A stretch of DNA of 6,088 nucleotides from a virus (IMGVR_UViG_2526164631_000022:1-6088); one strand, 5' to 3'; counted from the stretch's first letter, positions 2,127 through 6,088 are shown. Numbers and translations: made by a program. The notes: generated by a model not told the origin, from the letters alone.

Positions 2127-2159
2127 AAAACCGCTAATGGCCAGATTAGCGGTTATTTT
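2127..2159. terminator. Bidirectional rho-independent terminator between convergent gpU-like gene and invertase gene
   Basis: Perfect 10-bp stem aaccgctaat (2129-2138) / attagcggtt (2145-2154) with 6-nt loop ggccag. It is followed on the + strand by ATTTTGTTT and on the - strand by TTTTTGTGTT. The invertase stop codon (2146-2148) lies in the stem. Confidence 0.55.
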
Positions 2160-2736
2160 GTTTACTCTTCTCAATTGTTCCACTTGATTCTCCTGCGGGG
2201 TGGTAACGATAAATTGTCGATATACCAATGCTGTAAATTATTGCCAGTTGTTTTCTGTCGTGACCGTTTTTAATCAGCCTTGCTATTTGCTCATGCTGTT
2301 CTTTTGTCAGCTTCGGTCGACGTCCGCCTGTGCGCCCCCGTGCGCGCGCTGCCGCCAGTCCGGCCAGTGTACGTTCAACAATTAATTCACGTTCCATTTC
2401 AGCCAGGGCACCCATCACGTGGAGAAAAAACGACCCCATTGGAGAAGATGTATCTATGCTGTCGGTCAGACTGCGAAAATTAATCCCTCGCTCCCGTAGT
2501 TCCCCGACGAGAGAAATCAGATGTTTCATGCTTCGCCCGAGGCGATCCAGTTTCCAGACAACCAGCGTGTCACCTTTTTGAAGCTGCTTTAAAGCGCGTT
2601 TTAATCCCGGTCGGTCTGTCTTTGTTCCGCTTAATTTATCTTCAAATATCTGTTCACATCCTGCACAAACAAGAGCGTTTCGTTGCAGGTCTGTATTCTG
2701 GTCATTTGTTGATACCCTTACATAACCAATCAGCAC
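2146..2736 (-). CDS. pin: Site-specific DNA invertase, serine recombinase of the Gin/Pin/Cin/Hin family
   Basis: Translation MLIGYVRVSTNDQNTDLQRNALVCAGCEQIFEDKLSG...DTLVVWKLDRLGRSMKHLISLVGELRERGINFRSLTDSIDTSSPMG...ALAEMERELIVERT... has the YVRVSTNDQ catalytic-serine motif and a C-terminal helix-turn-helix (KQLAIIYSIGISTIYRY). Preferred start is GTG at 2734-2736 with GGGAG 7 nt upstream, giving the canonical MLIGYVRVS N-terminus. The ORF track's TTG start at 2754 adds 6 non-conserved residues and is probably not used. Confidence 0.9.
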   Translation of the reverse strand: MLIGYVRVSTNDQNTDLQRNALVCAGCEQIFEDKLSGTKTDRPGLKRALKQLQKGDTLVVWKLDRLGRSMKHLISLVGELRERGINFRSLTDSIDTSSPMGSFFLHVMGALAEMERELIVERTLAGLAAARARGRTGGRRPKLTKEQHEQIARLIKNGHDRKQLAIIYSIGISTIYRYHPAGESSGTIEKSKQNNR

Positions 2737-2790
2737 ACTGAATCTCCCGTCCAAAAGCGCAAATCATGCCATGCAGGCCAGAAACGGCCA

Positions 2791-2816
2791 TTATCTAAAA
2801 CCTCGGTTTACAGGAA
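2791..2816. repeat. Left crossover site for the invertase (gix/pix/cix-like, 26 bp: TTATCTAAAACC-TC-GGTTTACAGGAA)
   Basis: Two imperfect 12-bp inverted half-sites flank a central TC dinucleotide, matching remembered gix/hix architecture. 24 bp (2801-2824) are identical to the reverse complement of 5710-5733. Located about 55 bp upstream of the invertase start. Confidence 0.8.
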
Positions 2817-3761
2817 ACGGTAAATCAGGCTTCTGGCGCATTACAGAAAAACCAGAACGGCGCAGATATTCCGGGAAAAGATATCTTCACCAAAAATATT
2901 GGTGCCTGCCGCGCATATAGCTCATGGGTGGATATTGGTGGCGATAGTCAGGTCTGGACAACCGCGCAATTTATTTCGTGGCTGGAGAGTCAGGGAGCAT
3001 TTAACCATCCTTACTGGATGTGCAAAGGCTCATGGGCTTATGCAAATAATAAGGTCATTACAGATACAGGTTGCGGAAATATTTGTCTTGCAGGTGCTGT
3101 GGTGGAAGTTATTGGCACTCGCGGCGCAATGACCATACGCGTTACTACGCCGAGCATGTCCAGCGGTGGCGGAATTACTAACGCTCAATTCACTTATATT
3201 AATCATGGTGATGCTTATGCTCCTGGCTGGCGAAGAGACTACAACACGAAAAACCAGCAGCCTGCATTTGCTTTAGGGCAAACAGGAAGCAGGGTTGCAA
3301 ATGATAAAGCTGTTGGCTGGAACTGGAATAGCGGCGTTTATGATGCAGATATCAGTGGCGCATCGACATTAATCCTCCACTTCAATATGAATGCGGGGAG
3401 TTGCCCTGCTGTACAGTTCCGCGTGAATTATAAGAACGGCGGTATCTTTTATCGTTCAGCGCGTGATGGTTATGGCTTTGAAGCTGACTGGTCAGAGTTT
3501 TACACCACAACCCGCAAACCCTCTGCGGGGGATGTTGGTGCATATACGCAGGCAGAATGTAACTCAAGGTTTATTACAGGTATTCGCCTGGGCGGTCTGT
3601 CATCTGTTCAGACATGGAATGGTCCCGGCTGGTCTGACAGGTCAGGTTATGTCGTTACGGGTTCAGTTAACGGAAACCGTGATGAATTAATTGATACAAC
3701 TCAGGCAAGGCCAATTCAGTATTGCATTAATGGAAGGTGGTATAACGCGGGGAGTATTTAA
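2799..3761 (+). CDS. Alternative tail-fibre C-terminal (receptor-binding) cassette, currently in the unexpressed orientation; no own start codon, frame open from 2799
   Basis: The frame is open from just after TAA at 2796-2798 and reads NLGLQETVNQASGALQKNQNGADIPGKD...VDIGGDSQVW...RPIQYCINGRWYNAGSI*. The ORF track's 2928 start is only the first GTG in this frame. Its first ~9 residues are encoded by the crossover site and match the LGLQETVN encoded at the right site. The C-terminal ...INGRWYN motif parallels the other fibre ORF. Confidence 0.75.
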   Translation, partial: NLGLQETVNQASGALQKNQNGADIPGKDIFTKNIGACRAYSSWVDIGGDSQVWTTAQFISWLESQGAFNHPYWMCKGSWAYANNKVITDTGCGNICLAGAVVEVIGTRGAMTIRVTTPSMSSGGGITNAQFTYINHGDAYAPGWRRDYNTKNQQPAFALGQTGSRVANDKAVGWNWNSGVYDADISGASTLILHFNMNAGSCPAVQFRVNYKNGGIFYRSARDGYGFEADWSEFYTTTRKPSAGDVGAYTQAECNSRFITGIRLGGLSSVQTWNGPGWSDRSGYVVTGSVNGNRDELIDTTQARPIQYCINGRWYNAGSI

Positions 3762-3763
3762 TT

Positions 3764-4297
3764 ATGATGCACTTAAAAAACATTACTGCTGGCAACCCTA
3801 AAACAAAAGAGCAATACCAGCTAACGAAACAATTTAACATCAAATGGCTTTATTCAGATGATGGAAAAAACTGGTATGAGGAACAAAAGAACTTTCAGCC
3901 TGATACGTTGAAAATGGTCTATGACCGTAACGGCGTTATTATTTGTATTGAAAAGGATGTTTCAGCAATTAATCCAGAAGGCGCAAGCGTCGTTGAATTA
4001 CCTGATATTACAGCAAATCGCCGGGCTGATATTTCGGGTAAATGGATGTTCAAAGATGGCGTAGTGATAAAGCGAACTTATACCGGGGAAGAGCAGAGGC
4101 AGCAGGCAGAGAATGAAAAGCAAAGCCTGTTGCAACTTGTCAGGGATAAAACCCAGTTATGGGACTCACAGCTACGGCTGGGCATCATTTCCGACGAGAG
4201 TAAACAAAAATTAACAGAGTGGATACTCTTTGCGCAGAAAGTCGAATCTACAGACACTTCCAGCCTGCCAGTAACATTTCCCGAACAACCTGAATGA
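3764..4297 (+). CDS. Tail-fibre assembly chaperone (Tfa / Mu U / P2 gpG family), partner of the 2799..3761 cassette
   Basis: 177 aa, ATG 2 nt after the cassette stop, GGGGAG upstream. N-terminus [22 protein letters not shown]...DDGKNWYEE is shared with the second chaperone and is typical of Tfa proteins. ...[18 protein letters not shown]... is also shared. Confidence 0.85.
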   Translation: MMHLKNITAGNPKTKEQYQLTKQFNIKWLYSDDGKNWYEEQKNFQPDTLKMVYDRNGVIICIEKDVSAINPEGASVVELPDITANRRADISGKWMFKDGVVIKRTYTGEEQRQQAENEKQSLLQLVRDKTQLWDSQLRLGIISDESKQKLTEWILFAQKVESTDTSSLPVTFPEQPE

Positions 4298-4300
4298 GAC

Positions 4301-4329
4301 AAGGCCCGATAGCGGGCCTTAATTTTTAT
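4301..4329. terminator. Hairpin plus T-tract between the two convergent chaperone genes (probable terminator)
   Basis: Perfect 8-bp stem aaggcccg (4301-4308) / cgggcctt (4313-4320) with loop atag, followed by AATTTTTATT on the + strand. It sits at the centre of the invertible segment, so it is positioned the same way in either orientation. Confidence 0.45.
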
Positions 4330-4853
4330 TCAGGCTTTTGTGGCCATTCAGGATTTGCCGTATCCACACGGCTGACCAGAACACTGTAGCGTTCCCATGC
4401 TTCCAGTCGTGTGCGCTCCTCGTCTGTTGCCATATTCAGCCTGGCAGCGCGTTCCAGTGGCTGGATGACTGATTCAGTTTCGGAAAGCAATGCGGCCTTT
4501 TGTGATTCGGCCTGTTGTTGCTGTTCGTCTGCTGTATAAATCCGCTTAACCACAGTTCCGTCCTTAAACATCCACTTCCCTGAATCATCGGCACGACGAT
4601 TGACTGTTATATCTGGAATCTCAACGACACTAAAGCCTTCGGGATTAAGCGTTGAGGCATCTTTGGTTATGGCAACAATAATATTATTTTCGTCGTAAAC
4701 AATCTTTATGGTGTCTTCCTGAAAGCTATTTACTTCCTCATACCAGTTTTTACCGTCTTCTGTATATAACCAGATAACATCAAAATTCTTTGTTAGCTGA
4801 TATTGCTCTTTTGTTTTTGGATTTCCTGACTTAATATTTTTTAAATGCTGCAT
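4326..4853 (-). CDS. Tail-fibre assembly chaperone (Tfa family, lambda-Tfa-like C-terminus), partner of the currently expressed fibre tip
   Basis: 175 aa, ATG 3 nt after the fibre stop with AGGTG upstream. N-terminus [22 protein letters not shown]...EDGKNWYEE. The C-terminus ...[27 protein letters not shown] resembles the lambda Tfa C-terminus as I remember it. Confidence 0.85.
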
Positions 4854-4856
4854 AAT

Positions 4857-6020
4857 TTACACCTGTGCTACGTTATACCATGTGCCATTGATGTATTTTT
4901 GTATTGGTCTGAAGATGGCTTCATCATCGCCATCTACTTCACCAATGATTCTTAATCCGGTAATTGCGTGTCCGGCTTTTTCATAACGACCACCACGCGC
5001 CATCAATTGAACAACTCGCGTACCCAGGCGAACATCTTTTACATAGCGTGAATCAAAATTCCCCCAGTTGCTGGGCTGTATCTGACCGTTAACAGAAAAT
5101 ATTACCGAGTTATCTGTATTTCGCTGGCTATAGAAATGCCATCCTGCCTCATCGCCTAACTCTGCAACTACTGGACGGGTTGAAGCACCCCATAAATTAA
5201 ACGTTACATTCTTTGTGGAGGTGTTGGAGCTGGATAGCGAGATTTTTTTACTATCACCTGCCTGAATGTTTTTAAAAGCAATAGCAACTCCATTCTGAAA
5301 GCGGAATACTCGCTGACTATTAGCGTAAACATCAAGAATACCGTCTCCATTCTGTTTAAATCCGGTATCATTATCACCAAGAACAATAGAGCTACCACCT
5401 AACGCATTCGTCGTACCAACTCCAAGGCTGCCATTAATGACGGCATTAACAAGAATATTTAGTGCATCCCATTTCAGCGTCATCAGGTCTTTTGTTGTGG
5501 TGCTTTGTTTGCTTCTCCATTTGAAATATTCATTGCCGTTGTCGCCTGTTTCAAACCACATGTATGAATCAGTATCGCTGTCGGCATCATTTTTAAATCC
5601 AATCTTCGCCCAGTCAGTATTTCGAATCCAGGCAAGGATTGAGTCGTTTTCAAAAGTAAGCCCACCGGACAAGGTATCGCCATTCTTTTGCACGGCGTTC
5701 CTGGCCCTGTTTACCGTTTCCTGTAAACCGAGGTATTCGATAACAGCGGCAACGGTCGATTTCGCAAGAATATCCCGCCCGACTTTTGTCAGGGTTGCCA
5801 GGCTGGCGACATCATTCCCCGTAAAATACGGAAACTTGTCTGCCGCAGTAGCAAGCCCGGCCAGCGCCGTCAGGGTGGCATCTTTCGGTTGCTTACCCGC
5901 AAGCGCTTTAGTCATGGTGGTCGCAAAATTCGGGTCGTTTCCCAGCGCCGCCGCTAACTCGTTCAACGTATTCAGTGCGTCAGGCGACGAGTCTACAAGT
6001 GCGGCAATCGCGGCCATCAC
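4857..6020 (-). CDS. Tail-fibre protein, currently assembled form: constant N-terminal ~96 aa (6020..5733, outside the segment) fused to variable C-terminus (5729..4857, inside the segment)
   Basis: 387-aa ORF. The start is GTG at 6018-6020 or, more likely, ATG at 6015-6017, which overlaps the upstream gene's TGA (ATGTGATGG on the - strand). The ORF spans the right crossover site in frame. Gly/Asn/Ser/Thr-rich fibre-like body ends ...RPIQKYINGTWYNVAQV*. An in-frame stop at 6066-6068 means it cannot extend further upstream. Confidence 0.85.
   Translation of the reverse strand: MMAAIAALVDSSPDALNTLNELAAALGNDPNFATTMTKALAGKQPKDATLTALAGLATAADKFPYFTGNDVASLATLTKVGRDILAKSTVAAVIEYLGLQETVNRARNAVQKNGDTLSGGLTFENDSILAWIRNTDWAKIGFKNDADSDTDSYMWFETGDNGNEYFKWRSKQSTTTKDLMTLKWDALNILVNAVINGSLGVGTTNALGGSSIVLGDNDTGFKQNGDGILDVYANSQRVFRFQNGVAIAFKNIQAGDSKKISLSSSNTSTKNVTFNLWGASTRPVVAELGDEAGWHFYSQRNTDNSVIFSVNGQIQPSNWGNFDSRYVKDVRLGTRVVQLMARGGRYEKAGHAITGLRIIGEVDGDDEAIFRPIQKYINGTWYNVAQV
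5718..5743. repeat. Right crossover site for the invertase, in inverted orientation (TTCCTGTAAACC-GA-GGTATTCGATAA)
   Basis: Its reverse complement TTATCGAATACC-TC-GGTTTACAGGAA differs from the left site at only 2 positions of the outer half-site. It lies inside the - strand tail-fibre ORF, where it encodes ..IEYLGLQETVN... Confidence 0.8.
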
Positions 6021-6088
6021 ATAAGCCGTGCTTGCGATCTGAGTATTATTAGTCCCTTTTTGGCGTCAGTTGGCGTTGTTGGCGTTCG
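6017..6088 (-). CDS. 3' end of an upstream tail/baseplate-module gene (partial, continues beyond window), translationally coupled to the tail-fibre gene
   Basis: Open frame on the - strand from the window edge ends ...RTPTTPTDAKKGLIILRSQARLM* with TGA at 6017-6019, overlapping the fibre start. Only 23 codons are visible, so the product cannot be identified. Confidence 0.35.
   Translation of the reverse strand, partial: RTPTTPTDAKKGLIILRSQARLM

Follow-up and report, generated by a model that had tools for sequence, protein, structure and literature searches.

A Mu G-type tail-fiber inversion segment in a P88-like prophage of Escherichia coli

Does the 6088-nucleotide (nt) viral sequence IMGVR_UViG_2526164631_000022:1-6088 carry a complete DNA inversion system that exchanges the tip of a phage tail fiber, and could such a system still be at work? 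An earlier note on this DNA had described a complete Gin/Pin-type invertible host-range switch, consisting of an invertase, two crossover sites, two fiber tips, and two chaperones. We analyzed the whole stretch (here called the window), which is an entire 6088-bp contig from the E. coli DEC12A draft genome; among its products are a gpU-like protein (EHX19569.1) and an invertase (EHX19570.1, named "DNA-invertase hin" in its record). At one end of the window lies the 3′ third of the tape-measure gene T, and at the other the fiber gene H is cut off in its middle. All of the proposed components were found, and we conclude, with a probability of roughly 93%, that the window holds the tail-fiber host-range switch of a P88-like prophage and that this switch shares its module with the phage Mu G segment. 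The positions of its parts are collected in Table 1.

The crossover sites lie in an inverted repeat. When positions 2791 to 2824 were aligned with the reverse complement of 5710 to 5743, as the earlier note had proposed, the two arms matched over 34 nt with 94% complementarity and a spacing of 2885 nt. The 24-nt core claimed for them, ACCTCGGTTTACAGGAAACGGTAA, is exact and occurs once per strand (2800 to 2823 on the plus strand and 5711 to 5734 on the minus strand); none was found in 200 shuffled sequences. Using the Mu gix site (TTATCCAAAACCTCGGTTTACAGGAA) as the reference, we found in each arm a gix-like site, and all mismatches to Mu gix were confined to the outer half-sites. Compared with one another, the two sites of the window show 2 mismatches in 26 positions, each of them in the outer half-site; they have the central TC in common, which in the fiber-gene site is read on the minus strand (GA at 5730-5731). 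The window thus contains two inverted 26-bp sites with an identical central dinucleotide.

Between these sites lie two cassettes, each with a tip followed by a chaperone, and both tips and both chaperones are open reading frames. The constant part of the fiber gene (Sc) is currently joined to a tip of the P2 gpH type (Sv) with chaperone U, while the alternative tip (S′v) and chaperone U′ are encoded on the other strand, so that the two Caudo_TAP proteins are convergent. The window proteins match structures that have been solved for Mu S′, Mu S, and Mu U: S′v corresponds to residues 171 to 488 of PDB 8ju3 (E = 7e-213), and chaperone U corresponds to 5yvq_B (E = 7e-107). S′v is also 96% identical to the C terminus of P7 Sv. 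The fused tip Sv is 98.3% identical to its counterparts in phages phiSM and P884B11, whereas its identity to Mu S is only 47%. Between the two tips of the window, identity is just 24%, and between the two chaperones it is 55%. When inversion of 2805-5729 was computed, the constant part was in frame with either tip and open through the stop codon, and the point of fusion corresponded to residue 171 in the solved Mu S/S′ chain (8ju3). The expectation that inversion would swap in the plus-strand tip together with its own chaperone was thus borne out. Within the segment, positions 4893 to 5429, the receptor-binding middle of the fused tip, are the sole part that is not Mu-like and belong to the P2 gpH type. 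In P88, the middle of the Sv tip is different again from that of the window, with many indels in 5091-5400.

Comparative evidence from assemblies indicates that the segment flips in nature. With the segment flipped, the window is colinear with the genomes of E. coli FDAARGOS_1059 and E. coli O111:H2 strain 12A over 6087 nt, whereas in its native orientation it aligns with them in three pieces that break at the repeats. Positions 2805-5729 are identical to strain 12A at 2925 of 2925 bases, in inverted orientation. Four apparent mismatches to strain 12A turned out to be the outer half-sites, which had not moved; exchange at the central dinucleotide predicts exactly this pattern of stationary outer half-sites around an inverted segment. 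Across the relatives, the inversion breakpoints fall within the gix-like sites. The same was seen in two nearly clonal isolates, 2022S01-140 and 2022S01-140-18, whose chromosomes measure 4,943,889 and 4,943,894 bp and whose locus flanks are 99.94 to 99.96% identical. In each there is a P88-like prophage whose gix sites are the same, and the two segments have opposite orientations, with breakpoints inside the repeats. The suggestion in the earlier note that the switch may be active gains support from these opposite orientations in strain 12A, in FDAARGOS_1059, and within the isolate pair, and we consider the switch to be probably working. Related systems have been followed directly. The fiber segments of P2-like prophages in enteropathogenic E. 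coli E2348/69 phase-vary, as seen by sequencing and polymerase chain reaction (PCR) (PMC4272514), and long reads confirmed a Mu-type fiber inversion elsewhere in FDAARGOS_1059 (PMC9881135).

Orientation frequencies were taken from the junctions on the invertase side of the segment. Among complete E. coli genomes, the invertase-S′v junction was present in 132 and the invertase-Sv junction in 130. Counts of the Sc-side junctions (126 versus 355 genomes) were discarded for this purpose because fixed fusions in prophages lacking an invertase match them too. Such a fusion occurs at locus L004 of O6:H16 strain 2014EL-1346-6 (5598 to 9221), where Sc-S′v and a chaperone lie in a degraded lambdoid prophage beside the trp operon. 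This fusion is a fixed relic, since the locus has one gix-like site only, a truncated second chaperone, and no invertase.

A further arrangement was observed in the prophage of strain TW10828 (at approximately 14808-14850 and 17700-17742 of locus L002). A single T in the inner flanks of the repeat (GGTAAA[T]CAGG) lies on the opposite arm, on both sides. Both tips are therefore out of frame, which explains the "frameshifted" or split fiber annotations there. Either the exchange took place within CAGG, beyond the gix core, or polishing of sequence from a culture of mixed orientation produced an artifact.

The invertase belongs to the Gin type. Its 202-amino-acid (aa) open reading frame matched the Pfam families Resolvase (PF00239, 4e-50, residues 9 to 141) and HTH_7 (PF02796, 6e-13, residues 144 to 187), and it aligned with the Gin structures 4m6f (E = 5.5e-99) and 3uj3 (E = 2.6e-98). 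The catalytic-serine motif named in the earlier note is present as VRVSTNDQ, with Ser9 in place in these structural alignments, and residues 1 to 101 differ from Gin at 2 positions. Translation most likely starts at GTG 2736, which is preceded by GGAG and whose start codon and Shine-Dalgarno sequence align with those of Mu gin; the TTG at 2754, previously taken as the start, is unlikely. The protein is a mosaic, with 95.4% identity to Gin over residues 1 to 130 and 49% from residue 131 to the end, so that its DNA-binding domain is divergent; it is 71% identical to Cin. At the DNA level, identity to Mu gin runs at 91 to 100% up to window position 2348 (codon ~129) and collapses thereafter; the gix sites are nonetheless almost unchanged. 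Compared with P88, the window invertase has the alleles Q51 and S169 and a different C-terminal tail; these are shared with one of two prophage copies in strain 12A (at 1.66 Mb) and are real.

The 5′ end of the invertase gene includes a putative recombinational enhancer, for which Fis binding and function are predicted from sequence. The interval is 100% identical to that of Mu gin, in which Fis sites are on record (PMC3378877), and has G-N13-C 15-mers at both ends (GTATCAACAAATGAC and GTGCAGGATGTGAAC). Judged by its sequence, a cis-acting enhancer with Fis sites thus lies where this family carries one. A pair of candidate Fis sites spaced by 48 bp at coding nt 46 to 108 had been considered initially and was replaced by the interval homologous to the P7 cin enhancer. 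In Hin, the residues that contact Fis or the enhancer are K47, R48, and K51, together with Q151, R154, and L155 (PMC3798978). The corresponding residues are kept in the window invertase, as K-R-x-x-K in helix B (LKRALK) and Q-x-x-R-L in the first helix of the DNA-binding domain (EQIARL), in alignment with Gin and Cin.

Together with the observed anatomy, homologies, and in-frame fusions, and with the finding of either orientation in assemblies whose breakpoints fall inside the sites, the Gin and Hin literature suggests how the switch would operate; Fis dependence, the chemistry of exchange, and the host ranges are carried over from that literature. Dimers of the Gin-type invertase would bind the two inverted 26-bp gix-like sites, and host Fis, bound to the enhancer in the 5′ end of the invertase gene, would help to form a synaptic tetramer. 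Ser9 would then cut both sites at the central TC, one half would rotate by 180°, and the ends would be religated, leaving bases 2805-5729 inverted. In the orientation recorded, the constant part would be joined to the P2 gpH-type tip, with chaperone U encoded next; inversion would exchange these for the Mu S′-type tip and, behind it, chaperone U′. Because the H promoter and the starts of transcription and translation lie outside the segment, orientation alone would decide which tip and which chaperone are made, and a population of lysogens would therefore release phage with two receptor specificities. H-type fibers of P2 use the E. coli lipopolysaccharide core, and the S′/U′ fibers of Mu in the G(-) state extend infection to hosts such as Citrobacter freundii, Shigella sonnei, and Enterobacter cloacae.

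The carrier is a P88-like E. coli prophage of the P2 family (genus Xuanwuvirus), of a common and already annotated kind. Phage P88 (Xuanwuvirus, Peduoviridae) is 94.3% identical to the window across 94% of its length and has the same gene order; the assignment to Xuanwuvirus draws on both nucleotide identity and gene order and is judged on the tail region within the window. Several genomes of enterotoxigenic E. coli carry prophages that are 98.7 to 98.8% identical to the window. In P88 and in the prophage loci L001, L002, and L010, the order is FI-FII-E-E′-T-U, a convergent invertase gene, the invertible segment, and H-I-J-W-V, with ogr and D on one strand and FI-FII-E-E′-T-U on the other. The gpU-invertase arrangement was found in 621 of 5426 complete E. 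coli genomes (~1 in 9).

Table 1. Features of the inversion module and its immediate surroundings in the window
Feature	Position	Strand	Details
Bidirectional terminator-like hairpin	2129..2154	both	Inverted repeat with T-runs on both strands, between converging gpU and invertase genes
Gin-type serine DNA invertase, 196 aa	2146..2736	-	Resolvase + HTH_7; GTG start as in Mu gin
Recombinational enhancer, predicted Fis sites	2651..2718	-	Coding nt 19 to 86; homologous to annotated P7 cin enhancer
gix-like 26-bp site adjoining invertase	2791..2816	+	TTATCTAAAACCTCGGTTTACAGGAA; 1 mismatch to Mu gix; crossover TC 2803-2804
Silent alternative tip S′v, 318 codons, no start codon of its own	2805..3761	+	95.3% aa identity to Mu S′v
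Chaperone U′ of silent tip, 177 aa	3764..4297	+	Caudo_TAP 1.3e-33; 94.9% identity to Mu U′
GC-rich hairpin	4301..4320		Between chaperone stop codons; T-run after it on plus strand
Chaperone U of currently fused tip, 175 aa	4326..4853	-	Caudo_TAP 1.2e-34; 93.1% identity to Mu U
Fused tip Sv, 290 codons, P2 gpH type	4857..5729	-	96.6% aa identity to the C-terminal 290 residues of P2 gpH
gix-like 26-bp site within fiber gene	5718..5743	-	Reverse complement TTATCGAATACCTCGGTTTACAGGAA; 2 mismatches to Mu gix
Constant part Sc of fiber gene H, partial, runs off window	5730..6088	-	Alignment to the 760-aa H of L001 and both strain 12A copies

Outside the segment, the record is of lower quality. Compared with four close relatives, T has private indels (single-base losses at 949/953 and at 992 and a two-base loss at 1207), owing to which it lacks a continuous frame in the window. 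In gpU, a -1/+1 pair at 1935 and 1961 shifts a stretch to SSLIATARRKK in place of SEFDRYGKAKK. Two extra bases in H, at 6057 and 6066, break the Sc frame, which changes between "...TPTTPT" and "KGTNNTQIASTAYVMAAIA...". The earlier note had set the boundary of the system at 6020, but the GTG there is not a start, since H changes frame upstream of it, and the gene continues past the end of the window; the intact H of L001 has 760 aa. In the invertase, a +1/-1 pair at 2424-2433, private to this contig, yields R102S and F105L, so that helix E reads GSFFLHV, compared with GRFFFHV in Gin, Cin, P88, and all relatives. The second of these changes affects the phenylalanine switch of helix E (Gin F104/F105, equivalent to Hin F105/F106), which is needed for an active tetramer. 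The description of every part as intact therefore does not hold for the record as written, in which the fiber gene is frameshifted 37 to 46 nt beyond 6020 and a leucine occupies the position of an essential phenylalanine.

The complete genome of strain 12A offers an explanation. This strain has two P88-like prophages, copy A at 2.23 Mb and copy B at 1.66 Mb, and the indels of the window are absent from both of them as well as from the four relatives. The gpU of copy B is without the indel pair, its invertase is identical to that of the window except for GRFFFHV, and neither copy has the extra bases in H. When positions 1 to 2830 of the window were compared with L010 and L011, every informative site carried the A or the B allele, and only three substitutions were private. 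In order, these sites read as four B, 45 A, one B, 20 A, one B, two A, and 28 B, and then as an interleaved AABBBABA spanning 2503-2780. The simplest reading is that the contig is a collapsed-repeat consensus of two coresident prophage copies, produced in draft assembly. The frameshifts and the phenylalanine-to-leucine change are most likely assembly errors, not biology. From its name, its serotype, and the matching of alleles, O111:H2 strain 12A is very probably DEC12A itself.

Several observations weigh against an intact, working switch in this DNA. Taken literally, the record has T and H frameshifted and a leucine at Gin 105 (Hin Phe106). Every substitution of Hin Phe106 other than tyrosine abolished inversion (PMC4513852), and the invertase would therefore be dead if the record were read as it stands. 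A sigma-70 scan returned fewer promoter-like sites than shuffled sequences did and none upstream of the invertase gene, so the invertase promoter was not located. Flipping in this culture is deduced from other assemblies, the identification of strain 12A with DEC12A depends on name, serotype, and alleles, and an assembler could have made a false join through the ~40-nt repeat.

If the record were correct as written, the DEC12A prophage would be decaying, its F105L invertase would be dead, and the switch would be locked, a relic comparable to the P segments found in cryptic prophages. The private indels in T and H, the R102S/F105L pair, the inactivity of Hin Phe106 mutants, and the finding that the gpU and invertase variants each occur on one contig only in a collection of 15 billion proteins would all agree with decay. 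We nevertheless think it very unlikely. The indels are missing from the four close relatives and both strain 12A copies, several lie within homopolymer runs, and two are closely spaced compensating pairs, which neutral decay would not be expected to produce; moreover, sites from two paralogous copies are interleaved in the flank, as is typical of a collapsed-repeat consensus, and the 2925-bp segment is free of errors and identical to strain 12A. The mixture of alleles might instead be biological, the product of gene conversion between the two P88-like prophages of DEC12A. Recombination between related coresident prophages is well documented, and the B-type tract at 1760-2410 (28 sites) embedded in A-type sequence resembles its outcome. 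A true recombinant is the least improbable of the alternatives but still unlikely, given that the alleles alternate from site to site in AABBBABA and that the contig has a terminal BBBB, that the numerous private indels occur only where the contig is mixed, and that the complete genome of strain 12A shows two clean copies. We also considered, jointly, two ways in which the odd features of the record could be biology rather than assembly noise. The mixed contig could be a real recombinant of two P88-like prophages 570 kb apart on the same chromosome, whose two invertases, with identical gix sites, could each act on the segment of the other or even between the prophages; and the TW10828 arrangement could be a third, fiberless state of the switch that arises by exchange outside the gix core. 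This combined view is a long shot, somewhat less credible than the recombinant considered by itself.

The remaining alternatives concern the function and nature of the element. Inversion could serve the host by making a fiber-derived protein that blocks the adsorption of other phages, the role reported for PinQ/StfE2 in the cryptic prophages of E. coli K-12, where a Pin-family invertase and an e14 fiber chimera are involved (PMC12529663). The window has the same type of invertase and tip cassettes; here, however, the carrier is a complete P2-like prophage, related to P88 and phiSM, both of which can be induced and form plaques, and all virion genes are intact in close relatives. Such a role for the window therefore appears far-fetched. 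Finally, the repeat could be part of a longer, nonspecific duplication without site-specific recombination, a concern raised in the earlier note. The only point in its favor is that the two cassettes are distant paralogs. The similarity stops after 34 nt, beyond which the tips share so little protein identity that the repeat is not part of a long duplication; the repeats fit the 26-bp Mu gix consensus; and in four independent comparisons the breakpoints lie inside the repeats, with the outer half-sites unmoved. We regard this reading as refuted. An invertible host-range switch of a P88-like prophage, recorded on a composite contig, accounts best for the window.

Other observations concern the surrounding prophage. 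In L001 (8546-14121) and in P88 itself (L006, 2640-8215), the tail operon FI-FII-E-E′-T-U is on the strand opposite V-W-J-I-H and D-ogr and is thus inverted relative to the canonical P2 order; it ends tail-to-tail with the invertase gene. A search for extra gix-like sites flanking the FI-U operon, as a possible cause of its inversion relative to P2, gave none, and each locus had 2 sites only (with up to 5 mismatches allowed). Strains DS26-1 (the host of L001), 12A, FDAARGOS_1059, and MSI001 each have at least two P88-like prophages with identical gix sites, the second locus of DS26-1 lying near 16921-21388 of NZ_CP035879.1. With the sites shared in this way, the invertase of one copy could work in trans on the segment of another. 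An Rfam scan of the window returned no RNA family, and an NCBIfam scan of six window proteins returned no family at the cutoff.

The earlier note had singled out the full length of both cassettes as unusual. All four genes are indeed open, but this is the standard state in P88-like phages and was seen in more than 100 complete E. coli genomes. The element is already known at each level: its family, its module (93% identical in DNA to the Mu G segment), and its carrier phage, which has public annotation. The mechanism was already described, structures of Gin and of Mu S, S′, and U had been solved, and the element had been recorded in P88, P884B11, and phiSM. What looks unusual in the window is most likely an artifact of the composite draft contig. 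The window is in this respect a cautionary case, as a short draft contig that mixes paralogous prophages suggests, when read literally, a dead invertase and a broken fiber gene. Since about 1 in 9 complete E. coli genomes has the arrangement and the orientations are evenly split where the two tip types of the window occur, host-range work with P88-like phages should control the orientation of the segment. In a study of P88 tail fibers and host range (PMC5285337), the invertase, inversion, and second tip are not mentioned (0 occurrences), and segment orientation was apparently uncontrolled.

Among the closest known systems are those of the Xuanwuvirus phages P88, P884B11, and Citrobacter phage phiSM, which carry the same element at 94% identity over 91 to 94% of the window. 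Their gix sites are identical to those of the window, and T-U, the convergent invertase, two tips, and two chaperones are already annotated publicly; P88 and phiSM are inducible, plaque-forming phages. The fused tip of the window resembles P2 gpH, part of the P2 gpH/gpG pair, and the likeness includes the stretch encoded by the inner gix half-site. To our knowledge, P2 has neither an invertase nor a second tip-chaperone cassette, so its tip is fixed. The C segment and Cin of P1 and P7 share homologous tips and chaperones (95.8% DNA identity to P7 over 2838-5681), and in P7, too, the enhancer is located within the 5′ portion of cin; in contrast, the C segment is longer (4 kb) and arranged differently relative to cin, and its carrier is a plasmid prophage. 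In E. coli K-12, the P segment and Pin of e14, as well as PinQ and PinR, represent the same invertase family acting on fiber-tip cassettes in prophages, and flipping has been seen there by sequencing and PCR. These are defective lambdoid relics with decayed cassettes, whereas the carrier family of the window is a complete, inducible P2-like phage.

The module itself is almost that of Mu G/Gin. The layout Sc-[Sv-U/U′-S′v]-invertase is shared, and the DNA is 93.0% identical over 2348-4892 and 93.8% identical over 5430-5750, a match that takes in the first 129 gin codons, the gin-proximal gix, S′v, U′, U, the start of Sv, and the second gix. The gix sites are 1 to 2 bases apart, the enhancer intervals are identical, and the GTG start is the same. 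The differences lie in the setting and in particular parts. Mu is a transposable phage, whereas the carrier of the window is a P2-family prophage; Sc of the window is P2 H-like and Sv is of the P2 gpH type; the C-terminal DNA-binding domain of the invertase is only 49% identical to that of Gin; and the invertase gene neighbors gpU of the tail operon, in place of com/mom in Mu.

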